Origin: Anaerosomatales bacterium | GTDB taxonomy: Bacteria; Actinomycetota; Coriobacteriia; Anaerosomatales; SLCP01 | Reading direction: 5' to 3' | Length of the DNA: 64,000 nucleotides | Assembly: GCA_029210645.1 (NCBI GenBank) | Contig: JARGFT010000011.1 | Span: 9,519-73,518 of the forward strand | Shown here: in pieces, positions 9,996 through 40,926 of the stretch | How positions within the stretch are numbered: the stretch's first letter is position 1 | Layout: each line of letters starts with the position of its first letter | The notes under the pieces: model-generated | Told to the model about the DNA's origin: nothing | The model's input: the letters and a program-made list of their open reading frames with translations, nothing else | Databases searched by the model: none | Position numbers and translations under genes: made by a program

Positions 9996-11021
9996 CTACG
10001 AGAGGATGACCGGCTCGACCTCGTCAGGAGCCAGATCCCCGGAGGACGGATCGCCACCGCACATGCCGACCGGAGGCGCCGCCTTGCCGCGGGCGAGCGC
10101 GGCCTCGCGCTCCTCGCAGGCGATGACCGCATTCATCGCCACCACAGCGACCTCCACCATGCTGTCATCGGGCTCCCTCGTCGTCATCCGCTGGAGCTGG
10201 AGTCCCGGCCACAGCACGACCTTGACCACGGGGTTGTCGGGCGCCTTGCCGGCCCACTTGATGACCTCGTATGCAAGCCCGGCGATGAGCGGGAGCAGGA
10301 GGATCCGGAATGAGATCGCAACGAGCAGCGTGATGATGCGGTGGTCGGTGCCGAGCAGGCCGGTGACCGCCTTGACGGGGATGAGCGAGAACACCAAGAT
10401 CGCGATGACCATCACCATCAGCAGGAACGAAGTCCCGCAGCGCACGTGCATGGTCTGGTAGCGCTGGATGATCTCGGCATCGAGCGGCAGCCCCCGCTCG
10501 TAGGCGTGGATGGTCTTGTGCTCGGCCCCGTGATAGGCGAAGACACGCTGGATGTCCTTGATGCGGCTGATCGCCCAGATGTAGATGAAGAAGGCCGCGA
10601 CGCGCAGCACTCCGTCGACCACGTTCCACGTGAACGGGCGCTCTGTGGCCTGTCCCACCATGAAGTTGGTGAGAACGGCCGGCAGCACGATGAAGAGCAC
10701 CACGGCAAGCCCGATGCCGAGGACCATAGAGAGCGCGATCTCCTTGCTCGAGAGCTGCTCCTCCTCAGTCTCACCGGCATACTCGGCCGAGATGGCGAAC
10801 GCCTTCATAGCGAGCACGAGACTCTCGTAGAGACCGACGACACCGCGGATGACCGGCTTGCCGAGGTTAGGGTGCTTGGAGACGGCGGTGCGCAGCTCGT
10901 GCTCCTCGACGTGGATCTCGCCATCCGGCTTGCGGATGGCCACCGCCCAGTTGTGTCTGCCTCTCATCATGACGCCCTCGAGGACCGCCTGGCCCCCGAT
11001 GTGCGTGTGCTTGACCGGCAT
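9996..11021 (-). CDS. DUF1385 family membrane protein (often linked to prmC/prfA)
   Basis: MPVKHTHIGGQAVLEGVMMRG... and ...YHGAEHKTI... are hallmarks of DUF1385. Start trimmed to the ATG at 11021, which shares 1 nt with the upstream stop. Confidence 0.8.
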   Translation of the reverse strand: MPVKHTHIGGQAVLEGVMMRGRHNWAVAIRKPDGEIHVEEHELRTAVSKHPNLGKPVIRGVVGLYESLVLAMKAFAISAEYAGETEEEQLSSKEIALSMVLGIGLAVVLFIVLPAVLTNFMVGQATERPFTWNVVDGVLRVAAFFIYIWAISRIKDIQRVFAYHGAEHKTIHAYERGLPLDAEIIQRYQTMHVRCGTSFLLMVMVIAILVFSLIPVKAVTGLLGTDHRIITLLVAISFRILLLPLIAGLAYEVIKWAGKAPDNPVVKVVLWPGLQLQRMTTREPDDSMVEVAVVAMNAVIACEEREAALARGKAAPPVGMCGGDPSSGDLAPDEVEPVILS

Positions 11022-11503
11022 CAGCGTTCGTCCTTCCCTCCGAGAAGTATGGTCCACCCACGCTTGACCTCGATGGGCACGGACGAGTAGGTCGCAAGCC
11101 ATACGAGATAGACAGCCACCGCGGCGAGCAGAAGTGCCGCAGTGGGCTGGTTGAGCCAGTGAGGACTGCCGGGCAGCCTGAAGACGTCCATGATAGCAAG
11201 CCCGGTGATCGACATCGTCACGAGCGAGACGTTGGCAGCGTTGTCGCGGCGCTCCAGGTAGCGGACGCTGCGAATCTTCTGGCTTTCGCGCATCCGTGCC
11301 GCGATGCCCCACACCGCCGGGCGCAGGCCGACCGCGAGCAGCGGCAGGAATGTGGCGAAGAGCGGCCAGGACCACCCTTCGGCCAGAAGACCGGCGAAAA
11401 TCGCCGCGAAGACCACGGGAACCGCGAGATGGGCGATGACGACCCCGCGGTCGGGGTCGTAGACATCGCGCCCCGCGTCCCCGGGCAGCACGACCCTACT
11501 CAC
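11021..11503 (-). CDS. Hypothetical membrane protein
   Basis: 160 aa with about 4 TM helices. Overlaps the thyX stop and the DUF1385 start, which suggests translational coupling. Confidence 0.55.
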   Translation of the reverse strand: MSRVVLPGDAGRDVYDPDRGVVIAHLAVPVVFAAIFAGLLAEGWSWPLFATFLPLLAVGLRPAVWGIAARMRESQKIRSVRYLERRDNAANVSLVTMSITGLAIMDVFRLPGSPHWLNQPTAALLLAAVAVYLVWLATYSSVPIEVKRGWTILLGGKDER

Positions 11504-12179
11504 GTCGGGGCGCCCGCTCGTACGGCTCGCCGCAGGTCATCTTTCCCTCGCGGCACGGCCCGCGCCTGCACGACGCGCCCGCGTCCATGAAGACGTAGGG
11601 CGCGGTGGGCTCGGCGAGTGCGAGCATGCGCAGCGCGAGGTCACGGATCTCCCACTGGGCCCGCTTGCAGCACCTCAGCTCGAAGAAGTGCAGCAACTCG
11701 CGCACGTTCATGGTGATGACGATCTTCGTCTCCATGGCGTTGGGCAGCAGATAGCGGGCATCCTCTGCGGGGATCCCGGAGTCGACGAGCTCGCGGTAGG
11801 CAGCGAACGCGGCGGAGGCCGCGGCATCGAAACGCTCGCGAATCCCCGGATCGTCCGTCACGCTCGGCGGGACGATGAAGGTGGGCTCCTCGTCGTAGGC
11901 GACGTAGCGCTGCGACTGCTGGTTGTACGAGGCGAGGCGGTGACGGACGAGCTGGTGGGTCATCGCCCGGGAGACCCCGTCGACCGCGAAGGTGTAGGAG
12001 ACGTGCTCGAGCGCGGAGAAGTGGCCCGAGTTCATGATGGTGCGCAGGACCTTGCGCACGCTCTCGGCGGTCATGTCCTCGAAGAGCGCCGCGGCGCCCA
12101 CCGGCGCGTAGCAGAGCCGGGCGGCCGCGGCGATCGCACGCTCGGGATCGGGTGTGTGATAGAGCAGGCGAACGTCCAC
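11496..12179 (-). CDS. thyX: FAD-dependent thymidylate synthase
   Basis: ThyX signature ...RHRLASYNQQSQRY... Start placed at the GTG (VDVRLLYHTPDPE). The ORF could extend to 12251. Confidence 0.88.
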   Translation of the reverse strand: MDVRLLYHTPDPERAIAAAARLCYAPVGAAALFEDMTAESVRKVLRTIMNSGHFSALEHVSYTFAVDGVSRAMTHQLVRHRLASYNQQSQRYVAYDEEPTFIVPPSVTDDPGIRERFDAAASAAFAAYRELVDSGIPAEDARYLLPNAMETKIVITMNVRELLHFFELRCCKRAQWEIRDLALRMLALAEPTAPYVFMDAGASCRRGPCREGKMTCGEPYERAPRRE

Positions 12180-12278
12180 GCGGTGCCTCTCGGAACGCGG
12201 GGCCGTCGGGCCCCGATACGGCAAGGGAGGCGAGTCGCCTCGCCTCCCCATTCTAGCAGTGCCGGTGCGGCAGAACGC

Positions 12279-12716
12279 CTACTCGGCGCTCTCCTCGGCG
12301 GGGGCCTCCTCGGCGACCGGTTCCTCGGCGGGAACCTCGTCGCCAACCGCATCAGCCACGCCCTGGGCCGCCGCAACCTTCGTCTCGTGCTTAGCTGCCT
12401 TGGCGGCCTTCTCGGCATCCTTCGCGGCGCGGGCCTCGCGGGCGGCAAGAGCAGCTTCCTCGTGCGCCTTCTGACGTGCGGCGCGCTCGGCGGCCTCCTT
12501 CTCGATGACGTTGGATGCCGAGGCACCGAATTTGTCGGCGAAACGCTGGACGCGACCGCCGGAGTCGACGAGCTTCTGGGTGCCGGTGTAGAACGGGTGG
12601 CACTTGGAGCAGAGCTCGACGTGGAGCTCTGCCTTGGTGGAGCGGGTCTTGAACGACTCGCCGCACGAACACGTCACCGTACTCTCGACGTAGTCCGGGT
12701 GGATACCCTCACGCAC
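12279..12716 (-). CDS. rpmE: Ribosomal protein L31 (zinc-ribbon type) with ~75-aa Ala/Glu/Lys-rich C-terminal extension
   Basis: N-terminal 70 aa reads REGIHPDY...CSCGES...[13 protein letters not shown] start lies 6 nt after a GGAGGTGA SD. The tail is low-complexity ([35 protein letters not shown]...). Confidence 0.92.
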
Positions 12717-12737
12717 GTGCAGTCACCTCCGATAAGC

Positions 12738-12760
12738 GGCCCTGGTTTCCGACCAGGGCC
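12738..12760 (-). terminator. Hairpin between rho and rpmE (rho terminator or rpmE leader stem)
   Basis: Minus strand reads GGCCCTGGT-CGGAA-ACCAGGGCC, a perfect 9-bp stem. It lies 7 nt upstream of the rpmE SD and has no U-tract. Confidence 0.35.
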
Positions 12761-12833
12761 TGAGCAAGCCGAGCAAGTGTAGCACGCGTCCTGCAGGTGG
12801 GCAACGAGATATTGCAGCGCTCTCCGGGGGTCC

Positions 12834-14183
12834 CTACAGATCGACCCCGTTGCTCTTCTCGGCAGCCTTCTTGGCCATCCGGTGCAGGAACTCCTGGTTC
12901 GTCGGCACCTGGCGCAATCCCTTGATGAGCATCTCGATGGCGCGCTCGGAGTTGTCCACCCCGTGCAGGATGCGCCGCACGCCCCACACGAACGGTGCCT
13001 CCATCGGATCGAGGAGCAGCTCCTCCTTGCGCGTGCCGCTGGTGACCACGTCGATGGCCGGGAAGATCCGGCGGTCGGCGAGGCGACGATCGAGGCGCAG
13101 CTCCATGTTACCCGTGCCCTTGAACTCCTCGAAGATCACCTCGTCCATCTTCGAGCCGGTCTCGACGAGCGCGGTTGCCATGATGGTGAGCGATCCGCCG
13201 TGCTCGATGTTGCGGGCCGCGCCGAAAAAGCGCTTGGGCGGGTAGAGAGCGGTCGAATCGACACCACCAGAGAGGATACGCCCGCTCGCCGGGGTGGCGA
13301 GGTTGTAGGCGCGCGCGAGGCGGGTGATCGAGTCGAGCAGGATGACAACGTCGTACCCGCTTTCGACGAGGCGCTTCGCGCGCTCCATCAGGAGTTCGGC
13401 CACGGCGATGTGGTTGTCGGCCGGCATATCGAAGGTCGAGGAGACGACCTCGCCCTTGATCGAACGCTCCATGTCGGTGACTTCCTCGGGCCGCTCGTCA
13501 ACCAGCAGGCACATGAGGTGGACGTCCGGGTCGTTAGCCGAGATCGACGCGGCGATCTCCTTGAGGATGGTGGTCTTGCCGGCCTTGGGCGGCGAGACGA
13601 TGAGCCCGCGCTGCCCCTTGCCGATGGGCGCCACCAGATCGATGATGCGGGCGGTGAGCTCGTCCTTGCCCGTCTCCAGCCGGAAGCGCTCGTCGGGGTA
13701 GACCGGCGTCAGGTCGCGGAAGTGCTTGCGCCCGCGCGCCTGCTCCGGGCTCAGCCCGTTGACCGTGTCGATGCGCTGGAGGGCCGCGTACTTCTCGTTG
13801 TCCTTCGGTGGCCGCACCTGTCCGCGGATCAGGTCGCCGCGGCGCAGCTCGCCCCGGCGGATCTGCGACATCGAGCAGTAGACATCCGAATCACCCGGGA
13901 GGTAGCCAGCCGTGCGGATGAAACCGTAGCCCTCGGGAAGAACGTCGAGGATGCCGCCGATCTCGACGAATCCCTCGGCCTTGACCTTGGCCTCGAGGAC
14001 GACATCGATGAGTTCGTCCTTCTTCTTGAGCGCCTTGACGTCGAGGCCCAGTTCGGCCGCCATCTCTCTGAGCTCGACGACCTTCTTCGGCTCGAGGTCG
14101 GCGCGGGTTATCGAGGGCTGGGGCGGCTGCTGGGCAGGACCACCTCCGCCGCGGCGGCCGCGCTTACGGGGTCGTGCGCTCAT
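12834..14183 (-). CDS. rho: Transcription termination factor Rho
   Basis: Rho N-domain, Walker A ...PPKAGKTT... and a conserved C-terminus. Start trimmed to MSARPRKRGRRGGGG..., whose ATG forms an ATGA overlap with the fsa stop. Confidence 0.95.
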   Translation of the reverse strand: MSARPRKRGRRGGGGPAQQPPQPSITRADLEPKKVVELREMAAELGLDVKALKKKDELIDVVLEAKVKAEGFVEIGGILDVLPEGYGFIRTAGYLPGDSDVYCSMSQIRRGELRRGDLIRGQVRPPKDNEKYAALQRIDTVNGLSPEQARGRKHFRDLTPVYPDERFRLETGKDELTARIIDLVAPIGKGQRGLIVSPPKAGKTTILKEIAASISANDPDVHLMCLLVDERPEEVTDMERSIKGEVVSSTFDMPADNHIAVAELLMERAKRLVESGYDVVILLDSITRLARAYNLATPASGRILSGGVDSTALYPPKRFFGAARNIEHGGSLTIMATALVETGSKMDEVIFEEFKGTGNMELRLDRRLADRRIFPAIDVVTSGTRKEELLLDPMEAPFVWGVRRILHGVDNSERAIEMLIKGLRQVPTNQEFLHRMAKKAAEKSNGVDL

Positions 14184-14842
14184 GAGTTCTTTACCTTCTC
14201 CCAGTCGGCCAGGAACGACTCCAGGCCGCGATCGGTCAGCGGGTGCTTGATGCACTGCTGCAGGATCTTGAAGGGAACGGTCGCGATGTCCGCCCCCAGA
14301 AGCGCGGCACCCACCACGTGGCCGGGATGACGCACGCTCGCCGCGATGATCTCGACGTCGTGTCCGAAGTCGTAGTTGTTGATCGCGGCGACGGTGTTGC
14401 CGAGGTGCTCCAGCCCGTCCTCGGAGATGTCGTCGAAGCGGCCGATGAACGGCGAGATGTAGGCGGCTCCCGCGCGGGCGGAAAGCAGCGCTTGGGGCAC
14501 GGTGAAGCAGAGTGTCATGTTGACCTTGATGCCGCGCTCGAAGAGCTCGCGGGTCGCGGCGAGCCCCTCGGGCATCGTCGGGACCTTGACAACGACGTGC
14601 TCGTGCAACGCGGCGAGCTCGACGCCCTCGGCGACGATCTCGTCACGCTTCAGACTGACCGTCTCGGCCGAGACCGGCCCGTCCACGATCTCGCAGATTC
14701 GCACGATGTGCGCGTGGAAGTCGGCAAGCTTGCCGCCTTCGCGCGCGTAGAGCGTGGGGTTGGTGGTGACTCCCGAAACCGCTCCCCAGCTCGCGGCTTC
14801 CTCGATTTCGGCGATGTTCGCCGTGTCCAAGAAGAACTTCAC
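14180..14842 (-). CDS. Fructose-6-phosphate aldolase / transaldolase (type 3B, Fsa/TalC family)
   Basis: 220 aa, MKFFLDTANIAEI...GVTTNPTL...VKVP (Schiff-base Lys context). Confidence 0.88.
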   Translation of the reverse strand: MKFFLDTANIAEIEEAASWGAVSGVTTNPTLYAREGGKLADFHAHIVRICEIVDGPVSAETVSLKRDEIVAEGVELAALHEHVVVKVPTMPEGLAATRELFERGIKVNMTLCFTVPQALLSARAGAAYISPFIGRFDDISEDGLEHLGNTVAAINNYDFGHDVEIIAASVRHPGHVVGAALLGADIATVPFKILQQCIKHPLTDRGLESFLADWEKVKNS

Positions 14843-15792
14843 GTCCGGTCTTCCTCCTTCATAGTCACGCCGCTTTCAGGCGTATCTTCCGTGTTGCGCA
14901 GAACCTCGTTCACAACGTGCTCGAGCGTGTCTGCGACTGTGTGGTCGAGCTGATGGCTGTAGATGATCGGGACCCCGTGCTTGTCGGCCTGGTCCTCGAT
15001 GTAGAGACCGAGCATCCGGATGTTGTCGAAGTTGGACCGGTACCGCTCGAAGGGCCTGAGCCCGTCGGTCTGCACCTCGCGGATGTAGAAGTGGCTGCGA
15101 TGCGAGTCCTCGTCCTCGACAGCTATCAGGATCTGGACGACCCGGGCACCCGGGAAGTCCGACGGTTCGATGTATCCGGGAACGAGGTGGATACCTTCGA
15201 CTACCAGGCTGACGCCCTCTTTCATGCTCCGCTCGATGAGCGCCTTGACCCCGGATACGACCACTGCCGTCTGCTCCCGGAACCCGACGATGACCGGATC
15301 GGCTCCACGGGGTACCGGGACTCGGAGGCTGCGCCACGCTTCAAATGCGCTTGCATGGAGCGCGGGCATGAGTTCCTCGGTAAAGATAGCACGCATGACC
15401 TCACGAATGGAATCCGTCGACACGAAACGCGTGATGCCGAGCCGGTGTGCGACCTCTGCTGCGATGGTCGACTTGCCCACACCGGTGGTTCCGCCGATGA
15501 GCACGATCACGGGCGTGTCGATCCTGCTCAGCTCGTCCAGGTGCTGGTAGCGCTCGGCAAAGGACTCGCCCGCCATACGCTGCAGGTAGTCAACGGCAAG
15601 GTCCTTGAGCCGGCCCATCGTGATCGAGAGCTCGTCGCGCTCACGCAGGTCGTCCTGGATGGCCTGGGCCACCTCGTACGCCTTGCTCGGAGGCAGTCCG
15701 GTCGCCGTGAACGACTGGGCGAGGAGCCCCTTGGAGAACGGGAGCCCGTGTCGCTTGTCAGAAAGCGTGATGATCTTTCCCGTCGGGGGCAC
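14839..15792 (-). CDS. 2-phosphoglycerate kinase (archaeal Pgk2-type)
   Basis: P-loop ...LIGGTTGVGKSTIA... and overall resemblance to methanogen 2PGK. GTG start at 15792 lies 1 nt after the cpgS stop. The longer ORF to 15942 would overlap cpgS. Confidence 0.75.
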   Translation of the reverse strand: MPPTGKIITLSDKRHGLPFSKGLLAQSFTATGLPPSKAYEVAQAIQDDLRERDELSITMGRLKDLAVDYLQRMAGESFAERYQHLDELSRIDTPVIVLIGGTTGVGKSTIAAEVAHRLGITRFVSTDSIREVMRAIFTEELMPALHASAFEAWRSLRVPVPRGADPVIVGFREQTAVVVSGVKALIERSMKEGVSLVVEGIHLVPGYIEPSDFPGARVVQILIAVEDEDSHRSHFYIREVQTDGLRPFERYRSNFDNIRMLGLYIEDQADKHGVPIIYSHQLDHTVADTLEHVVNEVLRNTEDTPESGVTMKEEDRT

Positions 15793-15793
15793 G

Positions 15794-17137
15794 CTAAGCT
15801 CCCCTCTCTGCGCCGCGCTCGAGCGCGAGGCGCGACGCTTCCAGCAGCACTCCGTCAAGATCGCCCCCGTCCACCGGGACGGGCACGTTGTCACAGAGCA
15901 CGGTCGGCACCCCTGCCTCCTCGCCCGCGGTGGCCACCACATCGATCGCCGCAGCCTTGAGCTCGGTCAGGAGCAGGTCGTACTCCCCGGCGCATCGCTG
16001 CATGTCCCGTCTGAGCAGCGAGCGGTTCGACAGGTGGGAACTCGCGCCCACCACGGTGCAGCCGTACTCCTCCTCGAGATGGGCTGAGAGCTTGTCGAGC
16101 ACGGCCTCTGGTGCGGTGGTCGCGAAGAACACGCGGGCGCCGTCGACCGGCTCGATCGGCGCGGGCCGGAAGGTGGTCGTGGCAACCGGGAGTCCGGGGC
16201 GGGCCTCCTCTACGGCCTGCCGGACCGTCTCGATCTCCGCTGCCGACGCGTTGGGCTCCTCGGCCGTTGCGAGCACCACCGCATCAGCCTTGCCGAGCCG
16301 AAACGGCCCAAAGTAGTCGCGCACGTAGGTCAGACCGCGCCCGGCTCCCACTACGAGGATCGACGCATCCGCGTGGACCGGCGGGATCGCCGCGCCGGAA
16401 CCCTCGAGTACGAGCAGCTCCTTGCCGAGCGAGTCGGCAAGCCGCGCCCCCTCCACTACGTTGCTGAAGTAGGTCTCCCCTGCCATCCCGCCTCCGCAGC
16501 GGCGGCAACCAACCGTCGTGACCCGGCTCATGACGGCGTCCTCGTAGTTGTCCGAGGAGGCATGCTTGCCCTGCTTGGCGAGCTCGAGCAGTTCGGGCGT
16601 GGTCAGTGCGACCTCGTCGCCCCGGATGAGCTCGGGCTCGGCCGGACCGCCCCGGCCCATCGCGAGCACCACGATGTCGTGGCCCCGGGCTTTCAGCAGG
16701 CGCGCGACGTACGCCGAGATCGCCGTCTTGCCGACCCGCTTGCCGGTGCCGATGAGCCCCAGCGTGGGCGTCACGGTGTGCAGCGCGGCGGTGGGCGGCG
16801 AGAAGTGGAAGTCCGCGCCCCGGTACTCCACGCCGTGTGCGAGCGCGATGCCCGCGAGGCGGAAGCGGTCCGCGGAAGTCACGACCGGCTCGTCGGACAG
16901 GTCGACGACCAGGTCCGGGCTGTATCGCTCGACCGCCTCGGTCACGGCCCCCTCGGCGTCCGGAGCCGAGACGAGCGGCACGCCGTAGGTCTCGTGCCCG
17001 CCGTCGAGGTCGACCTTCTCGGTCCCACCGAGGAAGGCAGCTGCGACGACCTCATGCTCGGCAGCCAACTCCTCGAGCGCGAAGCGAACGACCGGCGGGT
17101 AGTGCTCGCCATCGATGAGCGCGACGACACGGCTCAC
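15794..17137 (-). CDS. Cyclic 2,3-diphosphoglycerate synthetase-like protein
   Basis: About 447 aa. N-terminus ...VVALIDGEHYPPVV... and P-loop-like ...GTGKRVGKT... fit my memory of methanogen cDPGS (~460 aa). GTG start forms a GTGA overlap with the upstream stop. Confidence 0.72.
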   Translation of the reverse strand: MSRVVALIDGEHYPPVVRFALEELAAEHEVVAAAFLGGTEKVDLDGGHETYGVPLVSAPDAEGAVTEAVERYSPDLVVDLSDEPVVTSADRFRLAGIALAHGVEYRGADFHFSPPTAALHTVTPTLGLIGTGKRVGKTAISAYVARLLKARGHDIVVLAMGRGGPAEPELIRGDEVALTTPELLELAKQGKHASSDNYEDAVMSRVTTVGCRRCGGGMAGETYFSNVVEGARLADSLGKELLVLEGSGAAIPPVHADASILVVGAGRGLTYVRDYFGPFRLGKADAVVLATAEEPNASAAEIETVRQAVEEARPGLPVATTTFRPAPIEPVDGARVFFATTAPEAVLDKLSAHLEEEYGCTVVGASSHLSNRSLLRRDMQRCAGEYDLLLTELKAAAIDVVATAGEEAGVPTVLCDNVPVPVDGGDLDGVLLEASRLALERGAERGA

Positions 17138-17931
17138 ACCGTCACCTCCCCGGCATCCGGGCGCCACCGGCAGTAGGTGCGGTGGACGTCATGGAAGTCC
17201 GCGACGCACTCGGCACCCGCGAAGGGCTCCTTGAGCAGCACGCGAACGCGCTCTCGGTGGTGGATCTCGACGATGTTGTAGCAGGGGCGCACCCGGCCGC
17301 GCAGGCGATGCGAACACGCCGTCCCCGCGTTGACGATGAGCATGTCCTCGAGCCGCCAGACGTTGGGCACGTGCTTGTGGCCGCAGAGCACCAGATCGGT
17401 GCCGCAGTTCGAGAGCACCCTGAGCATGTCTCCGGCGTCGTAGACGATGTTGCGTTCGCGTCCGGTGCCCGGCACCGGCACGAGATGGTGATGCAAGCAG
17501 ACGACCTTGAACTCGTCGGGCTCGCTGAAGCGCTCCTCGATCCAGCGGTACCGCTCGCGACCCACGCGACCGCTGTCGAGATCGGGCTCGGAGGAGTCCA
17601 GGCCGAGGAGGCGGATGCCCCCTGCCAGCAGCTCGCGACTGCGCGCACCGAAGAGCTCCGTGAAGTGCTCGTCGCCGACGTTTCGCGAGTCATGGTTGCC
17701 CATCAGCACGAGGCGGTTCGGGCACTCGATCCGGTCGAGCAGCCGCTGCGCCTGCGCGAACTCCTGACGAAACCCCATATCGGTGAGGTCGCCTGTCACG
17801 ACCACCACATCGGGCTCGAGCTCGTTGAGCTCGTCGATCACCCGGGTGGCCAGGCTCGGGATGTGGTAACGCGACCCGCAGTGCAGGTCGGAGATGTGGG
17901 CGATGACGAAAGGTGCGTTCTCGCTCACCAT
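17134..17931 (-). CDS. Calcineurin-like metallophosphoesterase
   Basis: Motifs ISDLHCG, VTGDLTD, GNHD, LHHH and GHKH are all present. Confidence 0.85.
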   Translation of the reverse strand: MVSENAPFVIAHISDLHCGSRYHIPSLATRVIDELNELEPDVVVVTGDLTDMGFRQEFAQAQRLLDRIECPNRLVLMGNHDSRNVGDEHFTELFGARSRELLAGGIRLLGLDSSEPDLDSGRVGRERYRWIEERFSEPDEFKVVCLHHHLVPVPGTGRERNIVYDAGDMLRVLSNCGTDLVLCGHKHVPNVWRLEDMLIVNAGTACSHRLRGRVRPCYNIVEIHHRERVRVLLKEPFAGAECVADFHDVHRTYCRWRPDAGEVTV

Positions 17932-17943
17932 CGACTCCCCCTC

Positions 17944-18936
17944 CTAGTGCGGAAGCGTGCGGCGGACAGCGTCGGCATCGGGCGCGAAGATGCCGAGGCG
18001 CTCGAGACGACTGCCGAATCCGATGAGGCTTCGCAGCAACCCGCTGTAGTCGTCGGCAATGTAGGTGACGACGTTCGGCTCGCCCTCGATACCACCCAGC
18101 TCGGCGGCACGGTCGAGCGCATCGTTGAAGGTGCCGAGGGAATCGACCAGCCCCATCTCGCGGGCGACCATGCCCGGCCACATCCAACCGGTCGCCATCT
18201 CCTCGACCTCATCGGCGGGAAGCGAACGACCTTCCGCAACGATGTCGATGAACTCGCGGTAGGCGACGTCGATGTACTCCTCGAAGAGCGCGGTCTCCGT
18301 TGCAGTCATGCTCCGGTACGCGCTCCCCGCATCCTTGTACTCGCCTGCGGTGAGCACGGTGAACTCGATGCCGAGCGTGTCCAGCAGGCCCTCGACGTTG
18401 GGTATCTGGGCGATCACGCCGATGCTGCCCACCGAGGAGGTGGGGGTGGCGACGATCTCGTCGCACTGCGAGGACACCATGTAGGCGCCCGAAGCGCAGA
18501 TGTCGCCGACGCTGACCACTATGGGCTTCTCGATGCGGGCGATCTCCATCGCGATCTCTTGCGACGCGGCCACCGTGCCTCCGGGAGAGTCGACCCGGAT
18601 AAGGATCGCCCTGACGGAGGGATCCTCATCGGCCTGCTGGAGCTGGTCGACGAAGTACTCGGGTGTGATGATTCCGCTGTAGACGTTTCCCGTCCCCGCG
18701 ATCACGCCGTCGAGATAGAGAAGCGCCACCGAGCCACCGGAGGTCCGGACCGTCGGGCCGCTATCGTATGCCCAGAATGCGACGAACGAGCACGCAAAGG
18801 CGGCGAGCAGCAGCACGACCACTGCGCCGATGAACCAGCGCCACCCCGTGCTCGATCGCTCCGGAGCAGGAGGAGCGGCAGGCGCGACGGGCTGCTCGGG
18901 GAGGTGTAGTGCGGAAGTGGTGCCCTGGTGTTCCAT
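17944..18936 (-). CDS. sppA: Signal peptide peptidase SppA (36K type)
   Basis: N-terminal TM helix followed by a ClpP/crotonase-like fold, with ...DICASGAYM... (catalytic Ser context). Confidence 0.85.
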   Translation of the reverse strand: MEHQGTTSALHLPEQPVAPAAPPAPERSSTGWRWFIGAVVVLLLAAFACSFVAFWAYDSGPTVRTSGGSVALLYLDGVIAGTGNVYSGIITPEYFVDQLQQADEDPSVRAILIRVDSPGGTVAASQEIAMEIARIEKPIVVSVGDICASGAYMVSSQCDEIVATPTSSVGSIGVIAQIPNVEGLLDTLGIEFTVLTAGEYKDAGSAYRSMTATETALFEEYIDVAYREFIDIVAEGRSLPADEVEEMATGWMWPGMVAREMGLVDSLGTFNDALDRAAELGGIEGEPNVVTYIADDYSGLLRSLIGFGSRLERLGIFAPDADAVRRTLPH

Positions 18937-19040
18937 GGATTCCTCCGCGCGAGGTGTGGATGTCGCGGCTGCGACAGCGGATGGCGGTGCTCTCTATATT
19001 CCCTGACCGTGGATTGTCCGGTCAACAACCGCAGCACACT

Positions 19041-19967
19041 TCAGGCCAGGGTGGCGCCCGAGCGCGATATCCCGACGGCGAGCGGCTCGCACCTTCCCTC
19101 GAGCCGCTCGATCGCGGGACGCGCCCGAGCGGCGATCTCCACCGCATGCGCGAGCGCGCTTGCATCATCGGCTTCGGCGACGAGCCCGATCACCGTCGGA
19201 CCGGCACCCGAGAGCGCGGCGCCGGTGGCCCCCGCGGCGAGCAAGGCGGAGCGCACCGCCTCCAGATCGCCCACCGCGGCAGCACGGTACGGCTCGTGGA
19301 TCCGGTCGGCCAGACCGGCGGCGAGTGCGCCTGCGTCGCCGAGCGCGATCCCCGCGACGAGCAGGCCGGCGCGACCGGCGCTGAACGCTGCGTCGGCGTG
19401 GGGCACTGTTGCGGGGAGCAGCTCTCGCGCGTCGGGCGTAGCGAGCTGAGCGTGCGCGCTCACGACAACGGCCGCAAGACCCCGGGCCGGCTCGAGTCGC
19501 ATACATCGTGGCGTCCCGTCACTCAGTGCCCAGCTCACGGTGAACCCGCCATAGAGTGCAGCCGCAACGTTATCGGGATGGCCTTCGATCTCGGTCGCGA
19601 GCGCCAGCAGGGTCTCGCGGTCCAGATCGCTCCCGCACAGCGCGTCTCCCAGGATGAGCCCGCCGACGATCGCCGCCGCCGACGAACCGAGCCCGGCACC
19701 CGGGGGAATGTTGTTCTCGCACCGCAGCGATGCGGCGAGTCCGGGACGGCCCGCCTCGGCGAACACCCGCGCCACCGAGCGCGCCACGCGGTTGTCGGCT
19801 CCGCTGGAGAGCAGCCCCTCACCCTCGCCGGCGACCTCGACGTGCCACTCCTCGGCGAGCTCGGCGCTGAACCGGTTGTGCAGCGCGAGCGCCAGGCCGA
19901 AGGAGTCGAATCCCGGACCGAGATTGGCGCTGGTCGCGGGTATCGTGACGGTGTGCACGCGTGGCAC
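19041..19967 (-). CDS. thrB: Homoserine kinase
   Basis: GHMP kinase motifs ...PATSANLGPGFD... and ...IPPGAGLGSSAA... Start at GTG 19967 or 19958, just after the hom stop. Confidence 0.92.
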   Translation of the reverse strand: MPRVHTVTIPATSANLGPGFDSFGLALALHNRFSAELAEEWHVEVAGEGEGLLSSGADNRVARSVARVFAEAGRPGLAASLRCENNIPPGAGLGSSAAAIVGGLILGDALCGSDLDRETLLALATEIEGHPDNVAAALYGGFTVSWALSDGTPRCMRLEPARGLAAVVVSAHAQLATPDARELLPATVPHADAAFSAGRAGLLVAGIALGDAGALAAGLADRIHEPYRAAAVGDLEAVRSALLAAGATGAALSGAGPTVIGLVAEADDASALAHAVEIAARARPAIERLEGRCEPLAVGISRSGATLA

Positions 19968-19974
19968 CGGGTTC

Positions 19975-21261
19975 CTAGAGGTCCTCGACGCGGAGGACCG
20001 AGTCGACCGACTCGACGATGTCGAGCTGCTCGATCTCGGCAAGCGCCGCCCGTACGGCCCGCTCGGTCGCACGATGCGTCACGTAGACGATCTCGGCTGT
20101 CGGTTCGTCGGCGCCCTTCTGGATGACGCTCGCGAGCGACACGCCGTGATCTCCGAAGGACGTGGCCACCCGGCCGAACACACCCGGCTGGTCGACGACG
20201 CGCAGCCGCAGGTAGTAGGAGGTCTCGAGGTCTCCCATGTCACGCACGGGCAGCTCCTCGTTGCAGGTGCAGCCGACCAGGCCGAGGCAGCCGCGGGAGA
20301 TGTGACGGGCCACCTCGATCACGTCGCCGACCACCGCGCTCGCCGCCGGCAGCGACCCGGCGCCCTCGCCGAAGAACATCGTCTCGCCGACCGAATCCCC
20401 GACGACATAGATCGCGTTGTAGACACCGTTGACGCCCGACATCGGGTGCGACATGCGAATCATCGTCGGGTGGACCCTGATGTCGATGCCGGCCTCTGTG
20501 CGCCGCGCGATCGCCAGCAGCTTGATCGCGTAGCCCATCTCCGCGGCGTAGGCGACGTCGGCCGCCGAGATCGAGCGGATACCCTCGGCCGGCACCTGGT
20601 CCATCACGACGCGGCTGTTGAACGCGATCGAAGCGAGGATGGCAATCTTGGCTGCAGCGTCGAGCCCGTCGACGTCAGCGGTCGGGTCCGCCTCGGCAAA
20701 CCCTTTATCCTGGGCCTCGGCAAGCGCGGAGTCGTAGTCGAGCCCGTCCTCGGCCATCCGTGTGAGCATGTAGTTCGTGGTGCCGTTGACGATGCCCATG
20801 ATGCTGGTGATCTCGTTGGACACGAGGCAGTGCTTGAGCGGACTTATGATCGGGATACCGCCGCCCACACTCGCCTCGAACGCGATGTCCACGCCGTGCT
20901 CCGCGGCAGTGTCCATGACCTCCTGGCCGTGGCTTGCCATGAGCGCTTTGTTGGCGGTCACCACGCTCTTGCCCGATGTGAGAGCCGTGAGTACCACGTC
21001 CCGCGCCACTCCGGTGCCACCGATGAGCTCGATCACGATGTCGAGTTCGGGGTCGGAGATGAGTTCGAACGCGTCCGTGGTGAACGTCTTCTCAGGCAGG
21101 CCGAGGGCCTCCGCGCGGCCGGCATCGCGATCCGCGAACCGCGTGAGACGGATGTCGACGCCGGCCCGCCTCCGGAAGTCCCCGGCATGCCGACCGAAGA
21201 TCTCCACGACTCCGGAGCCGACGGTTCCAAGGCCGATCAGGCCGACGTTGACGGTGCGCAT
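19975..21261 (-). CDS. hom: Homoserine dehydrogenase (with C-terminal ACT domain)
   Basis: 428 aa with Rossmann motif ...VGLIGLGTVGSG... and a conserved catalytic core. Confidence 0.95.
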   Translation of the reverse strand: MRTVNVGLIGLGTVGSGVVEIFGRHAGDFRRRAGVDIRLTRFADRDAGRAEALGLPEKTFTTDAFELISDPELDIVIELIGGTGVARDVVLTALTSGKSVVTANKALMASHGQEVMDTAAEHGVDIAFEASVGGGIPIISPLKHCLVSNEITSIMGIVNGTTNYMLTRMAEDGLDYDSALAEAQDKGFAEADPTADVDGLDAAAKIAILASIAFNSRVVMDQVPAEGIRSISAADVAYAAEMGYAIKLLAIARRTEAGIDIRVHPTMIRMSHPMSGVNGVYNAIYVVGDSVGETMFFGEGAGSLPAASAVVGDVIEVARHISRGCLGLVGCTCNEELPVRDMGDLETSYYLRLRVVDQPGVFGRVATSFGDHGVSLASVIQKGADEPTAEIVYVTHRATERAVRAALAEIEQLDIVESVDSVLRVEDL

Positions 21262-21436
21262 GACTTCCTCCGGTGCAGACTGCGGGACGGACCGGCGGTT
21301 GCCCGGTCAGAGCGTATTGTACCCGAGTCCCGGGCCGGGCCGGGTCGCGCCGCAGTGGTCAGACAACGGTCAGATGTGGTTGGCACCCATGTGGATACTC
21401 GGCATCGAACATACGTTTGACCGAGGGAGGCGGCCG

Positions 21437-22081
21437 ATGAAACGGAGACATGCAACCACAAGAGCGGTCACGGCACTGCTGATCGTGCTCGGCGTCCTCG
21501 TGCCCGCATACGCGTTCGCGGCGTACAGGATGGTGCCGACGACGTGCACGAGCAGGTGTGCCAAGCAGCAGACGACCTACTGGTGCGGCCCCGCGAGCAC
21601 ACATTTCGTACTGCACTCGCAGGGACGCAACCTCGCGCAGTCGACCCTCGCTCGAGAGCTGAAAGGGTACCGCGGGGCGACCGCGATCGAGAACATCCCC
21701 GCCGTGCTCAACAGGTACAAGAGGGTCTCCATCAAGTACGTGCACGTGCCCCGCCGCTACATCACGAGCACCTCGCTCGTGAGAAGCATCATCACCTACG
21801 CAGTCGATCGCAAGTCCAGCGCGATCCCCTGCGTCAACCCGTACCCATACACCAACACCGCAGGGTACTACTCACCGGGCCTCCCGACCTATAGCGGCAC
21901 GAAGGCCGGCGGACACTACGTGGTGATTCGCGGGTACAACATCTCCTCGACCAGCGACTACGTCTACTACTTCGATCCGCACTACAGCTCCACACATTAC
22001 GGGAAGAGGCGCGCGAGCGTGTGGGCGATGGCCCGATCGATCCGGGTGAAGAACTATGGCAGCCAGGGCATCGTCTACTAG
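21437..22081 (+). CDS. Secreted papain-fold cysteine peptidase, C39-like
   Basis: 214 aa. Sec signal MKRRHATTRAVTALLIVLGVLVPAYA/FA, Cys motif QQTTYWCGPAS, His motif GGHYVVIRGY, then YYFDPH. Start chosen at ATG 21437. The long ORF from 20777 is antisense to hom. Confidence 0.7.
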   Translation: MKRRHATTRAVTALLIVLGVLVPAYAFAAYRMVPTTCTSRCAKQQTTYWCGPASTHFVLHSQGRNLAQSTLARELKGYRGATAIENIPAVLNRYKRVSIKYVHVPRRYITSTSLVRSIITYAVDRKSSAIPCVNPYPYTNTAGYYSPGLPTYSGTKAGGHYVVIRGYNISSTSDYVYYFDPHYSSTHYGKRRASVWAMARSIRVKNYGSQGIVY

Positions 22082-31690: not shown

Positions 31691-33070
31691 CTAGCCGAGC
31701 AGCGCTCCGAGCCCTCTGAGAAGCGGGGAGGCACCCAGACCGATCACAACGGTGCCGGCCACGAGCGCGACGAGCGCCACGGTGGCCGCCGGAGAGGCGA
31801 TACCCTCCCCCGAAACGCCTACCGGTTCGCCGAAGAACATCTCCCTCACCACCCGGAAGTAGTACCCGGCTGAGACCACACTCGTCAGGATGCCGAGCAC
31901 CACGAGCAACCAGAGCGAGGAGTCGACCGCGGCGCCGAACAGGTAGAGCTTGCCGAAGAAGCCCGCGAGCGGCGGGATCCCGATGAGCGAGAGCAGCCAG
32001 ATGACCACCGACCAGGCAAGCCACGGACGCCGTGCCGCCAACTGCGCCAGATCGGTGATCTCCGTACCCTCCTCGGCAGCGACCAGCATGACCGCCATCG
32101 AGGGCAGTGCGTACGCCACGGCATAGAAGACAGCGGCGGCATATCCCGTGTCCGTACCCGGCGCGAGCGCCATCAAGAGGTAGCCCGTGTGGGCCACGCC
32201 CGAGTACGCCATGAGACGGCGCAGATCGCTTTGGGGCAGCGCGGCGAGGTTGCCGAGGAGCATCGAGGCAACGGAGGCAACCGCCACGAGCGTGACGAGC
32301 GTCGGCATGTCGGGGGCGATCGCCGAAAGCAGGCGTGCGATGACCGTGATGCCCGCGATCTTGGGTACGGTGGATACGAACGCCACCGATGCGGGGGCCG
32401 CCCCCGCGTAGGCGTCGGGAGCCCAGTAGTGGAAGGGCGCGGCCGACATCTTGGCGAGCAGGCCAACGAGCGTCAGCAACACGGCGACGAGTCCGAGAAC
32501 ACCCGCCCCCTCGATCGAAAGTTCGGCAAACGCGGTCGAGCCGGAGATGCCGTAGAGGAACGACAGACCGTAGAGCATGACGATGCTCGTGAGCATCGAC
32601 AGCAGGAAGTACTTAAGCGCGCCTTCCAACCCCGAGACATCGCGCCGGCGGTAGCCCATGAGGATGTAGGCGGGCATGGTCGAGAGTTCGAGGGCGATGT
32701 ACATGACGATCAGATCGCGGGCCATGCACAGAAGCATGCCGCCTGCGGCCGCGAAGAGCGCGAGCGCGACGGCATCGCGCCGGCGCTCGTCAGACATCCC
32801 TCTGCCTGCGACCCAGAGTGCCCATACGGCGGTCAGACCCGCAACGCCCGTGCGTGCGAAGCGCGCGACGCTATCGGGCTCCACCTGCCCGAACACCATC
32901 GGGCCTCCCGTGCCTCCGACGGCCACCAGGAGTGCTGCCGCGCCGGCGAGAGCGGCAGCGATATATGCGGCTCCCTTGTCGCGCCCGGGCAGGAACTCAC
33001 CGAAGAGCACTGCCAGCGCACCCGCTACGACGAGTGCCTCCGGGACGAAGTGCCAGTAACCCGAGAGCAT
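31691..33070 (-). CDS. nuoN: NADH-quinone oxidoreductase subunit N
   Basis: 459-aa antiporter-like subunit, last gene of the nuo operon. Confidence 0.9.
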   Translation of the reverse strand: MLSGYWHFVPEALVVAGALAVLFGEFLPGRDKGAAYIAAALAGAAALLVAVGGTGGPMVFGQVEPDSVARFARTGVAGLTAVWALWVAGRGMSDERRRDAVALALFAAAGGMLLCMARDLIVMYIALELSTMPAYILMGYRRRDVSGLEGALKYFLLSMLTSIVMLYGLSFLYGISGSTAFAELSIEGAGVLGLVAVLLTLVGLLAKMSAAPFHYWAPDAYAGAAPASVAFVSTVPKIAGITVIARLLSAIAPDMPTLVTLVAVASVASMLLGNLAALPQSDLRRLMAYSGVAHTGYLLMALAPGTDTGYAAAVFYAVAYALPSMAVMLVAAEEGTEITDLAQLAARRPWLAWSVVIWLLSLIGIPPLAGFFGKLYLFGAAVDSSLWLLVVLGILTSVVSAGYYFRVVREMFFGEPVGVSGEGIASPAATVALVALVAGTVVIGLGASPLLRGLGALLG

Positions 33071-34543
33071 CTACACGGCTCCCATCGTCGCGAGAAGCGC
33101 GGTGACCGCCGGGTCCACGTAGCGCAGGATGCTCGACCAGTAGACCCCCATGACCACGGTAATCACCACGAGGGGGACGAGTATCCCGATCTCCAGGCGG
33201 TTCAGGTCGGTGATGCCCTCGACCGCACTGCTCGGCGTACCGAGCACGGTCCGTTGCACCATCCAGAGCATGTAGGCCGCCGCAAGCAGCACACCGATGG
33301 CAGCCGCTACCACGAAGCCCGGCGCAACGAGCTCGGAGCGCCACGCGCCCACCAGGCTCAGGAACTCCCCGACAAAGCCCGCCAGTCCGGGCAGGCCGAG
33401 CGAAGCGAAGGATGCGAAGGCGAGCATTCCCGCCGCTACCGGAGCCTGCTTGGAGAGCCCCGAAACGTCGGCGATCGTGCGGGTGTGGGTGCGCTCGTAG
33501 ACCATGCCCACCAGAAGGAAGAGCATGCCCGTGATGACCCCGTGAGCGAACATGATCGCCACAGCGCCGTTGAGACCCTCCGGTGTACCGGCTGCGATGC
33601 CGAGCATCACGAAGCCCATGTGCGACACCGACGAGTAGGCCACAAGCTTCTTCAGATCGGTCTGGGCGAAGGCCACGGCGGCTCCGTACAGGATCGAGAT
33701 CACACCCAGCAGCGCGACGAACCACGCCCATGACTCGGCAGCGTCAGGTAGCATCGGCAAGCTGACACGCACGAACCCGTACGTTCCCATCTTCAGCAGG
33801 ATTCCGGCGAGCAGAACCGAGCCGGCCGTCGGCGCCTCGACGTGGGCGTCGGGCAGCCACGTGTGGAACGGGAAGACCGGCACCTTGACCGCGAAGCCGA
33901 GGAAGAACGCGGCGAAGACCCACCACTGGAAGCTCGCGGGAAGACCGGTCGATGCGGCCAGCACGGTCATGTCGAACGTACCGCCCGCAGGATGCAGATA
34001 GAGCGCCAGGATACCGACGAGCATAAACACCGAGCCGAAGAGCGTGTAGAGGAAGAACTTGATCGCGGCGTACTCGCGCCTCGGTCCGCCCCACACCGCG
34101 ATCAGGAAGTACATCGGCACCAGCACGAGCTCCCAGAACACGTAGAAGAGCACGAAGTCCAGCGCGACGAACACTCCGTTCATGCCCACCGCGAGCAGCA
34201 GGATCATCGTGAAGTAGAAGGAGGGCCTCTCGGTCACCTTCCAGGACGCGAGGATCGCGATCGGCAACAGCAGCGCCGAGAGGAAGAGCAGCGGCAGGGA
34301 GATGCCGTCCACGCCGAGGAAGTACTGGATGTTCGCCTCGGGGATCCAGCGCGCCCGCTCGATGAACTGCAGCCCGGCGGCGACGTCGAAGCGCGCCGCG
34401 AGCCAGAGCACGAGAGCGAGATCGACCAGGGAGACGACAAGCGCCACCAGGCGCGGCAGGTCGGTGCGCTCCTTGGGCAGGAGTGCGGTGACCGCCGCAC
34501 CCACGAGCGGCAGGAACACGATGATCGTCAGGAGTGGCAACAT
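33071..34543 (-). CDS. nuoM: NADH-quinone oxidoreductase subunit M
   Basis: 490-aa antiporter-like subunit with ...FPFHTWLPDAHVEAPT... Confidence 0.93.
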   Translation of the reverse strand: MLPLLTIIVFLPLVGAAVTALLPKERTDLPRLVALVVSLVDLALVLWLAARFDVAAGLQFIERARWIPEANIQYFLGVDGISLPLLFLSALLLPIAILASWKVTERPSFYFTMILLLAVGMNGVFVALDFVLFYVFWELVLVPMYFLIAVWGGPRREYAAIKFFLYTLFGSVFMLVGILALYLHPAGGTFDMTVLAASTGLPASFQWWVFAAFFLGFAVKVPVFPFHTWLPDAHVEAPTAGSVLLAGILLKMGTYGFVRVSLPMLPDAAESWAWFVALLGVISILYGAAVAFAQTDLKKLVAYSSVSHMGFVMLGIAAGTPEGLNGAVAIMFAHGVITGMLFLLVGMVYERTHTRTIADVSGLSKQAPVAAGMLAFASFASLGLPGLAGFVGEFLSLVGAWRSELVAPGFVVAAAIGVLLAAAYMLWMVQRTVLGTPSSAVEGITDLNRLEIGILVPLVVITVVMGVYWSSILRYVDPAVTALLATMGAV

Positions 34544-34546
34544 CCC

Positions 34547-36454: not shown

Positions 36455-36455
36455 G

Positions 36456-36767
36456 CTACCCCTTCAGCGAGTCGATGGAGGACAGTTCGATGGAGCGGGT
36501 CTGGCGGTAGATCGCGAGCACGAGCGCCAGACCGAGACCGATCTCGGCCGCCGAGACCACCATCGTGAACATGGCGAAGAACTGGCCGGTCATCTCGGTC
36601 GGCGTGACGAAGCGCGAGAGCGCGACCATGTTGAGGTTGACCGCCACCGCCATGAGCTCGAGCGACATCAGCACCATGACCGCGCTGCGACGCGCAACGG
36701 CACCGTAGAGACCGAGCGCGAAGAGCACGGCGGCGAGCCCGAGGAAGGCCGAGGGTCCGATCGTCAC
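36456..36767 (-). CDS. nuoK: NADH-quinone oxidoreductase subunit K
   Basis: 103 aa, 3 TM helices, ...SAAEIGLGLALV... Confidence 0.9.
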   Translation of the reverse strand: MTIGPSAFLGLAAVLFALGLYGAVARRSAVMVLMSLELMAVAVNLNMVALSRFVTPTEMTGQFFAMFTMVVSAAEIGLGLALVLAIYRQTRSIELSSIDSLKG

Positions 36768-37267
36768 CGGTCATCCCCCTCCCTGGACCACCACACGGCG
36801 CCTACGAGCGCCACGAGCAAGACGAGCGACGCGACTTCGAAGGGTAGTGCCCACTGCGTGAAGAGCAGCTCGCCGAGGGCCGCGGTATCGGGCACGACGA
36901 TGGGCATCTCACCGACGCGGTCACCGTACCGGGCGATCGCCACGTACATCACCGTTCCGAAGACCGCGGCCAGGATCCCACCACCGATCGACACCTCGAC
37001 CGGGCGAACGGAGTCCTCACGGCGGCGCAGGGTGAGCATGATCACGAAGAGCATCAGGACCGAGACCGCTCCCGCGTAGATGAGGATCTGCACGACAGCG
37101 AGGAACTCCGCGGAGAGCAGAAGGTAGAGACCGCCCACGGCCACCATGACCTCGAGCAGCCAGAACGCCGCGTGAATGATGTTGCGCGTCGTGAGCATCC
37201 CCACCGCGCCGCCGATCGAGGCGAACGCGAGGATAACGAAGGCCACGCCGTTCACGCTCTCACTCAT
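36764..37267 (-). CDS. nuoJ: NADH-quinone oxidoreductase subunit J
   Basis: Start trimmed to MSESVNGVAFVILAF... About 167 aa, sitting between nuoI and nuoK. Confidence 0.85.
   Translation of the reverse strand: MSESVNGVAFVILAFASIGGAVGMLTTRNIIHAAFWLLEVMVAVGGLYLLLSAEFLAVVQILIYAGAVSVLMLFVIMLTLRRREDSVRPVEVSIGGGILAAVFGTVMYVAIARYGDRVGEMPIVVPDTAALGELLFTQWALPFEVASLVLLVALVGAVWWSREGDDR

Positions 37268-40401: not shown

Positions 40402-40427
<26 letters not shown>
39972..40427 (-). CDS. nuoC: NADH-quinone oxidoreductase subunit C
   Basis: About 150 aa of the 30-kDa family (...[10 protein letters not shown]...). Start uncertain: GTG 40427 overlaps nuoB, and GTG 40385 is the alternative. Confidence 0.8.

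Positions 40428-40926
<499 letters not shown>

Follow-up and report, generated by a model that had tools for sequence, protein, structure and literature searches.

A predicted cyclic 2,3-diphosphoglycerate pathway in a conserved housekeeping operon of uncultured anaerobic Actinomycetota

Cyclic 2,3-diphosphoglycerate (cDPG) is known from methanogens, among them Methanothermus fervidus, Methanopyrus and Methanothermobacter, in which a 2-phosphoglycerate kinase (2PGK) and a cDPG synthetase (cDPGS) form a two-step pathway. A 2023 structure paper describes the compound as found exclusively in hyperthermophilic archaeal methanogens (PMC10690619). A 64,000-nucleotide stretch of the genome of an Anaerosomatales bacterium (contig JARGFT010000011.1, positions 9,519 to 73,518 of the forward strand; hereafter the window, at its full length) carries homologues of both enzymes as adjacent genes, preceded by a metallophosphoesterase (MPE) gene and followed by fsa and rho. 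As judged from sequence, with a probability of about 0.7, the window encodes a complete, functional, native and vertically inherited bacterial two-step cDPG pathway. No report of cDPG, or of its pathway, in any bacterium was found in the literature searched, and the remark in the initial annotation that no such bacterial pathway had been characterised agrees with this absence of bacterial cDPG work. The paper on the first OPB41 isolates and its supplement make no mention of cDPGS or 2PGK genes. Recognition of the window cDPGS is not new, since public pipelines (NCBI, JGI) already name close homologues "2,3-diphosphoglycerate synthetase" or "cyclic 2,3-diphosphoglycerate synthase". The enzymes are thus known; the three-gene MPE-cDPGS-2PGK arrangement is conserved and unstudied.

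Aligned over its full length, the window cDPGS is clearly orthologous to the M. fervidus enzyme of known structure. A phmmer search matched it to PDB 8ORU/8ORK (M. fervidus cDPGS) at E 1.1e-132 and 47% identity, in agreement with the identity first proposed for this gene. Window residues 3-440 align with chain residues 5-453, and the homology includes the N-terminal dimerisation and substrate domain. A third PDB entry labelled cDPGS, 9SXB, was matched at E 1e-109 and 44% identity. The Pfam and NCBIfam library copies used for scanning are without a cDPGS model and gave only sub-threshold AAA_26 and CbiA matches; for homologues at 87-92% identity, PF27272 is the precomputed assignment.

The residues that hold the ligands in the M. 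fervidus enzyme are well described: K145 and R146 in the Walker A loop bind 2,3-diphosphoglycerate (2,3-DPG), E45 (with K46) of the partner subunit contacts it in trans, K149 and K406 act as charge shields, T150 and D208 are Mg ligands, and E305, T353 and E404, together with K406, contact the nucleotide (PMC10690619). They were mapped onto the window protein via an 80-sequence alignment that includes 59 actinobacterial and 16 archaeal sequences. E45, K46, K145, R146, K149 and T150 correspond to window E40, K41, K133, R134, K137 and T138, and D208, E305, T353, E404 and K406 to D196, E293, T341, E392 and K394; all are conserved. K133, R134, K137 and T138 lie in the window Walker A sequence GTGKRVGKT. 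Apart from E305, which is kept in the window, in 57/59 actinobacterial and in 16/16 archaeal sequences, the mapped ligand residues are invariant in all 59 actinobacterial and all 16 archaeal sequences. Comparison with the published active site therefore finds every placeable ligand conserved; P335 of PMC10690619 does not fall on a proline in the numbering used here, but P337 and P339 close by are both kept. The LIDGEHYPP motif and the kinase P-loop quoted in the initial annotation were both found in the translations.

The gene order on the minus strand is hom, thrB, sppA, MPE, cDPGS, 2PGK, fsa, rho, rpmE and thyX (Table 1). Reading of the junctions base by base confirmed both the position of the cDPGS and 2PGK reading frames, 1 nt apart, and the chain of overlaps said to bind them to MPE upstream and to fsa and rho downstream. 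The TAG of sppA is followed by a 12-nt spacer, containing GGAGGGGGAG, and by the ATG of MPE. A GTGA overlap joins the MPE stop to the cDPGS start; the cDPGS TAG, a single nucleotide and the 2PGK GTG come next; a further GTGA overlap joins the 2PGK stop to the fsa start; and an ATGA overlap joins the fsa stop to the start of rho, the final gene in the translationally coupled chain. Shine-Dalgarno-like sequences lie upstream of the starts in this chain, and a consensus scan of 11000-22000 found no terminator-like sites. Because cDPGS and 2PGK are translationally coupled to MPE, fsa/tal and rho, they would be expressed within a housekeeping transcription unit. The composition of the block is native: its G+C content is 0.63-0.71 as against 0.65-0.72 in the flanks, and its G+C content at third codon positions (GC3), 0.82-0.89, is similar to that of the neighbouring genes.

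The distribution of the block was scanned using one genome per GTDB species. At least 545 loci encode cDPGS, many of those listed being bacterial, and a protein search for cDPGS homologues gave at least 8000 candidates. Synteny and identity counts refer to the best 80 of the at least 545 loci, searched with ten window proteins; these are 61 actinobacterial loci, 15 from Methanobacteriales or Methanopyri, and 4 from Bacillota, Bipolaricaulota or "Anaerolineae". Neighbour counts are given over the loci with room for the neighbour in question (57 for 2PGK, 60 for MPE). The actinobacterial carriers are Coriobacteriia metagenome-assembled genomes (MAGs), Ca. Aquicultor and several evidently mislabelled bins, and the closest match among those listed (L001, MAG Coriobacteriia KA18, JAHYJI010000011) has a 98% identical cDPGS.

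The order MPE-cDPGS-2PGK-fsa-rho is kept in ~55 of the 61 actinobacterial MAG loci, the commonest orders being hom-thrB-(sppA)-MPE-cDPGS-2PGK-fsa-rho-rpmE-thyX, and synteny holds down to 45-50% cDPGS identity. The gene immediately downstream of cDPGS is 2PGK in 55/57 actinobacterial loci, and the one immediately upstream is MPE in 55/60. rho is syntenic in 51 loci (61-97% identity) and hom in 45; nearly every syntenic locus has fsa between 2PGK and rho; sppA is a variable member, present in only about half of them. The invariant core of the block is cDPGS-2PGK-(fsa)-rho. None of the 15 archaeal or 4 other bacterial loci has 2PGK or MPE within 10 kb of cDPGS, even at E = 1e-3. Across the loci, the identity of cDPGS to its window counterpart co-varies with that of 2PGK (r = 0.96), MPE (0.95), rho (0.90) and hom (0.90). 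A neighbour-joining tree of cDPGS, midpoint-rooted and built without an ArcE outgroup so that it gives no direction of inter-domain transfer, places the methanogen sequences in one clade and the actinobacterial sequences in at least two deep groups of their own; PDB 9SXB clusters with Bacillota sequences.

Given this wide synteny, co-divergence and the deep clades of its own, the block reads as an old vertical feature and not as a recent or strain-specific insertion or contamination. On these comparisons, uncultured anaerobic Actinomycetota have long passed the module on by vertical descent, in Coriobacteriia-like lineages as well as in deeper ones, e.g., Ca. Aquicultor. Two descriptions in the initial annotation are modified by this result. 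The block had been called an insertion between thrB and rho; its placement there stands, inside the core cluster lysA-hom-thrB...rho-rpmE-prfA-prmC-sua5...atp, but an insertion would be ancient at best, being shared by dozens of species-level genomes and by more than one deep actinobacterial clade. The term "archaeal-type" is overstated for a family found in at least 545 species genomes, many of the listed ones bacterial, with deep actinobacterial clades.

The kinase is best matched by the two 2PGK models of NCBIfam, NF008994 (328.9 bits, E 4e-98, below its cut-off of 603) and NF003259 (304.3 bits, below its cut-off of 343; E 1e-90), the latter being covered from position 6 to position 298 of its 306. 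Paralogue models score far lower, PRK12338 at 157.6 bits (5e-46) and mevalonate-3-phosphate 5-kinase at 84.1 bits (1e-23). The profile check of the proposed 2PGK identity thus favours 2PGK over the paralogues while leaving the protein under both cut-offs. Its Walker A sequence, GGTTGVGKST, lies at residues ~100-109, and P-loop Pfam families match the same region. A PDB search for a solved 2PGK structure on which substrate residues could be mapped gave weak FtsY matches only. From kinase-family membership alone the assignment would be weak; gene linkage to cDPGS supports it decisively, and the 1-nt gap, the 55/57 adjacency and the correlation of 0.96 mark the kinase as the predicted functional partner of cDPGS.

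The MPE is, by its profile match and motifs, a bona fide calcineurin-like phosphoesterase. It scores 66.3 bits against the Pfam Metallophos cut-off of 21.5, and all five metal-binding motifs are readable (SDLH, TGDLTD, GNHD, HHH and GHKH). The nearest solved relatives, the 2ZO9/2DXL/3D03 phosphohydrolase and Rv0805, are distant (E 4e-12 to 4e-11), as are the nearest curated relatives in NCBIfam, the cyclic-nucleotide phosphodiesterases SpdA and CpdA, and there is no equivalog match. We take the 2ZO9/2DXL/3D03 enzyme to be the glycerophosphodiesterase GpdQ. To our knowledge, no gene has been assigned to a cDPG hydrolase activity, which is described only biochemically and in Methanothermobacter. 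In that organism, cDPG turnover involves hydrolase activities (Roberts 2005, PMC1224877). Since the MPE is translationally coupled to cDPGS and known activities are without a gene, the MPE is a reasonable candidate for a cDPG or 2,3-DPG hydrolase, acting by ring opening or by dephosphorylation. Alternatively, the MPE-cDPGS adjacency could simply be inherited.

In the pathway that we favour, 2PGK would convert 2-phosphoglycerate and ATP to 2,3-DPG, and cDPGS would use a second ATP to convert 2,3-DPG to cDPG, ADP and Pi. The latter reaction may proceed by attack of the 3-phosphate, release of Pi and closure of the cyclic pyrophosphate ring, as proposed for the M. fervidus enzyme (PMC10690619). 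Both genes would be expressed constitutively alongside housekeeping genes, and the MPE might open or dephosphorylate cDPG or 2,3-DPG and so allow turnover. Orthology and the conservation of the ligand residues are demonstrated, as are the intactness of the genes, the operon structure, the synteny and a divergence in step with core genes; from these we infer the enzymatic activities and the accumulation of cDPG.

By analogy with Methanothermobacter, the compound would most likely serve as a trianionic K+ counter-ion and as a reserve of phosphate, carbon or energy drawn off gluconeogenesis, and not specifically as a thermoprotectant. Three lines of evidence favour this role over thermoprotection: the titles of several carrier MAGs point to palsa, bog/peat, groundwater or sediment samples; cDPG is present in the mesophile Methanobrevibacter smithii (PMC1224877); and in Methanothermobacter it is a fast-turnover phosphate, carbon or energy pool (PMC1224877). 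Given the peat and groundwater titles and the M. smithii case, the genes do not imply a thermoprotective role, which is doubtful here. The IVYWREL proxy for growth temperature gave 49-55 °C on ~39 window proteins. On six syntenic proteins even a palsa (permafrost peat) MAG came out at 54 °C, which makes the absolute values unreliable; the relative order, in which the window is upper-middle, is suggestive only.

A second bacterial context of cDPGS was seen in MAGs of Bacillota, Bipolaricaulota and "Anaerolineae" (L057:4-7686, L052:325-4516, L055:154-4145 and L077:6352-14435), in which the cDPGS homologue has neither 2PGK nor MPE as a partner. It is clustered instead with a regulator of the GntR/UTRA type, a periplasmic solute-binding protein, a fused double permease, a TOBE-type ABC ATPase and an iPGM-like protein with Metalloenzyme and iPGM_N domains in unusual order. 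This cluster has the look of an operon for taking up and catabolising cDPG, 2,3-DPG or some related phospho-acid. Since reversibility has been reported for the M. fervidus cDPGS (PMC1224877), import and breakdown of cDPG or 2,3-DPG with a gain of ATP is conceivable. The iPGM-like neighbour provides an independent tie of the cDPGS family to phosphoglycerate chemistry in bacteria and, by contrast, the importer-type cluster lends weight to reading the 2PGK-linked actinobacterial cassette as biosynthetic.

Several points weigh against a functional bacterial cDPG pathway. cDPG outside methanogens is not reported in the literature searched. The protein and species-genome searches found no cultured carrier strain, all the carriers found being MAGs, and a search seeded with a Karabetova-Gora mud-volcano MAG protein (P0113) surfaced MAGs only and no isolates of Anaerosoma or Parvivirga. 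The kinase falls short of both 2PGK cut-offs; 2PGK homologues with different or uncertain roles occur in Class I methanogens without cDPGS (PMC2686161), in Thermus and Deinococcus, and in plants as the LPA1 protein. The MPE is missing, whether lost or never acquired, from a subclade (L008, L010, L012 and L015) and from L073, all of which keep cDPGS-2PGK-fsa-rho; with these five loci retaining cDPGS-2PGK, the MPE is not obligatory. The cDPGS fold also has a paralogue with an unrelated reaction, the ArcE arginine synthetase (PMC11032458), and in this superfamily homology alone has led astray before. The ArcE precedent, the existence of 2PGK homologues that lack cDPGS or have other roles, the sub-threshold kinase scores and an identity of only 47% to a characterised cDPGS would all fit a neofunctionalised pair that has kept the fold and acts on another phosphorylated acid, or yields only 2,3-DPG or some other product, and makes no cDPG. 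We consider such a pair unlikely, since every mappable 2,3-DPG, Mg and ATP ligand is conserved, all but E305 being invariant in the bacterial clade, and the tight pairing with 2PGK in 55/57 loci fits the known two-step pathway. ArcE is described as having "low" similarity to cDPGS, as against 1e-132 for the window protein, and there are no arcB or arcC neighbours. Identity of the window protein with ArcE itself was rejected: no OTC/arcB or CK/arcC gene is nearby, and the protein is a close orthologue of cDPGS, to which ArcE is described as only distantly similar.

The reported reversibility of the M. fervidus enzyme (PMC1224877) and the uptake-like ABC-importer/GntR/iPGM-like cluster of the Bacillota, Bipolaricaulota and "Anaerolineae" MAGs allow the actinobacterial genes, too, to be read as catabolic. 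Reverse operation of cDPGS (cDPG + ADP + Pi -> 2,3-DPG + ATP) would then consume cDPG scavenged from nearby methanogens, and the MPE would complete the breakdown. This use is quite improbable for the window, as neither its cluster nor those of its relatives include a transporter, the committed biosynthetic kinase is translationally coupled to cDPGS, and a constitutive housekeeping operon is ill-suited to inducible scavenging. That the enzymes were first known from archaea, and that the block interrupts the presumed thrB-rho adjacency of Mycobacterium and Streptomyces, might suggest archaeal contamination, a chimeric assembly or a recent horizontal insertion. An artefact or foreign DNA of this kind is very improbable in view of the identical order in ~55 independent assemblies, the codon overlaps that bind the block to bacterial core genes, and the archaeal loci that have no 2PGK or MPE within 10 kb; native G+C content and GC3, synteny and co-divergence with rho and hom effectively refute contamination or recent horizontal transfer. 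Pairs of a P-loop NTPase and an MPE are also known in anti-phage defence systems, and the window MPE has weak partial NCBIfam matches to "anti-phage phosphoesterase" models. The chance of a defence module is negligible: PADLOC reported nothing for cDPGS and only marginal matches for MPE (28 bits) and 2PGK (17 bits), and a conserved, vertically inherited housekeeping operon is unlike a defence island, so that scan and synteny together rule it out. The biosynthetic two-step pathway remains the reading that we prefer.

If that pathway is active, cDPG would no longer be an extremolyte of archaeal hyperthermophiles only, the view still given in recent papers, and would count as a solute of uncultured anaerobic Actinomycetota, a large group spread across the globe for which MAG titles suggest sources such as groundwater, peat, mud volcanoes and sediments. 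Phosphate, energy or carbon storage and K+ balance would then be as plausible as thermoprotection. The conserved MPE would be a concrete candidate for a cDPG-degrading enzyme. New and possibly more easily expressed enzymes would become available for the biotechnological production of cDPG; their high GC content might spare the window genes the codon difficulties described for the M. fervidus gene, which has 33% GC (PMC12136491). In a wider picture, speculative and on balance doubtful, cDPG would be widespread among anaerobic subsurface bacteria as a phosphate-rich solute or phosphagen. The MPE-cDPGS-2PGK cassette would be its complete synthesis and turnover module, the MPE being the cDPG (or 2,3-DPG) hydrolase, and the operon of Bacillota, Bipolaricaulota and Chloroflexota MAGs could take up cDPG and draw ATP, phosphate and carbon from its breakdown. 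If true, an importing operon in other bacteria would mean exchange of cDPG between the two domains.

Table 1. Positions of the block genes and bordering features in the window
Feature	Position	Strand	Product length	Details and basis
hom, homoserine dehydrogenase	19975..21261	(-)		ORF (open reading frame) translation
thrB, homoserine kinase	19041..~19967	(-)		upstream border of block; start approximate; ORF translation
sppA, 36K-type signal peptide peptidase	17944..18936	(-)		Peptidase_S49, TIGR00706
Metallophosphoesterase (MPE)	17134..17931	(-)	265 aa	Pfam Metallophos
cDPGS	15794..17137	(-)	447 aa	GTG start at 17137; begins MSRVVALIDGEHYPP; ORF translation
2PGK homologue	14839..15792	(-)	317 aa	GTG start at 15792; P-loop GGTTGVGKSTIA
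fsa/tal, small transaldolase / fructose-6-phosphate aldolase family	14180..14842	(-)	220 aa	Pfam TAL_FSA, TIGR00875
rho, transcription termination factor	12834..14183	(-)		ATG at 14183; ORF translation
L31-Coriobacteria ribosomal-protein leader	12727..12759	(-)		Rfam RF03128; upstream of rpmE
rpmE	12279..12716	(-)		downstream of rho
thyX	11496..12251	(-)		between rpmE and prfA
DUF1385 gene	ORF runs to 11495, within 9996-12251	(-)		Pfam match begins at residue 214

The genes around the block are those of an actinobacterial core region: lysA, hom and thrB on one side, and rho, rpmE, thyX, DUF1385, prfA, prmC, sua5, rpiB, glyA, upp, a GT4 transferase gene and atpB/E/F on the other. We take the corresponding order in M. 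tuberculosis (Rv1293-Rv1304) to be lysA-thrA-thrC-thrB-rho-rpmE-prfA-hemK-Rv1301-rfe-atp, and the thrB-rho adjacency in Mycobacterium and Streptomyces is likewise presumed from the M. tuberculosis order (Rv1293-Rv1311). Measured against that order, the genes from sppA to fsa fall between thrB and rho. The presence of thyX and DUF1385 between rpmE and prfA is presumably a further departure from the Mycobacterium-type order; their placement is conserved in many related loci. topA and tatC are located further along, with a complex-I-type (Nuo or Mrp-like) cluster at 31691-40971 (-) that includes three antiporter-like subunits and 4L, 6, H and B homologues. A tRNA-Thr(CGT) lies at 41684-41759.

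The bordering genes were identified from their translations and profile matches. The rho product has the Rho ATPase core and an R/G-rich N-terminus. The thrB product can be aligned with thrB of related loci and contains PGFDS, a GHMP kinase motif; its probable GTG start lies 8 nt past the hom stop. sppA matches Peptidase_S49 (Pfam, 160 bits) and exceeds the cut-off of TIGR00706 (207.6 bits). The fsa/tal product matches TAL_FSA (Pfam, 178.9 bits) and, at 253 bits, is narrowly above the TIGR00875 cut-off of 245.95. It carries SPFIGR, a spot that we assume to be Tyr in true fructose-6-phosphate aldolases and Phe in small transaldolases, and the window "fsa" is probably a transaldolase. The RF03128 leader, barely above threshold at 34.6 bits (gathering score 33), sits where expected, marks where the regulatory unit that follows rho begins, and agrees with a Coriobacteriia origin.

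Some of the related loci have features of their own. At L058:11259-12366, in an Actinomycetota MAG, 2PGK is split over two overlapping frames by a frameshift, representing either a pseudogene or an assembly error, and thrB and fsa are missing from the block in L058 and L064. The labels "Eubacteriales" (L008, L015, L020, L022 and L043), "Reyranella" (L063) and "Slackia heliotrinireducens" (L046) conflict with the actinobacterial, Coriobacteriia-like synteny (hom-thrB-...-rho-rpmE-thyX) and the cDPGS tree position of these loci; the seven bins are probably mislabelled. Among archaea, MAGs of Methanobrevibacter (L060, L068-L070, L075 and L076) and Methanobacterium (L054, L072 and L080), both largely mesophilic genera, commonly have a cDPGS orthologue, which agrees with the detection of cDPG in M. 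smithii by nuclear magnetic resonance (PMC1224877) and is at odds with the "exclusively hyperthermophilic" wording.

The described system nearest to the window genes is the cDPG pathway of M. fervidus, Methanopyrus and Methanothermobacter (8ORK, 8ORU). The ligand residues of the window cDPGS are identical to those of the archaeal enzyme, and the window 2PGK covers nearly all of the archaeal model NF003259. The two differ in that the window host is bacterial and its pathway is predicted; its genes are adjacent, coupled, joined by an MPE partner and part of a housekeeping operon, whereas the 15 archaeal loci have neither 2PGK nor MPE within 10 kb of cDPGS. ArcE (TK2200 of Thermococcus kodakarensis; PMC11032458) is a distant homologue with the same P-loop fold, widespread in bacteria and once annotated as a "predicted GTPase". 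By its description it has only low similarity to cDPGS and is linked to arcB and arcC, whereas the window protein is a close cDPGS orthologue that retains the 2,3-DPG ligands and has 2PGK as its linked gene. The orphan 2PGK homologues (COG2074) of Class I methanogens, Thermus and Deinococcus and the plant LPA1 protein belong to the same kinase family as the window 2PGK; they have no cDPGS partner and their substrates are uncertain, whereas the window kinase is coupled to cDPGS, an adjacency kept in 55/57 loci. With the class III cyclic-nucleotide and glycerophosphodiester phosphodiesterases (Rv0805, CpdA, SpdA and, presumably, GpdQ), the window MPE has the calcineurin-like fold and the five metal motifs in common. 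The similarity is at the level of E ~1e-11 to 1e-12, and the conserved place of the MPE before cDPGS suggests a different substrate, possibly cDPG or 2,3-DPG.

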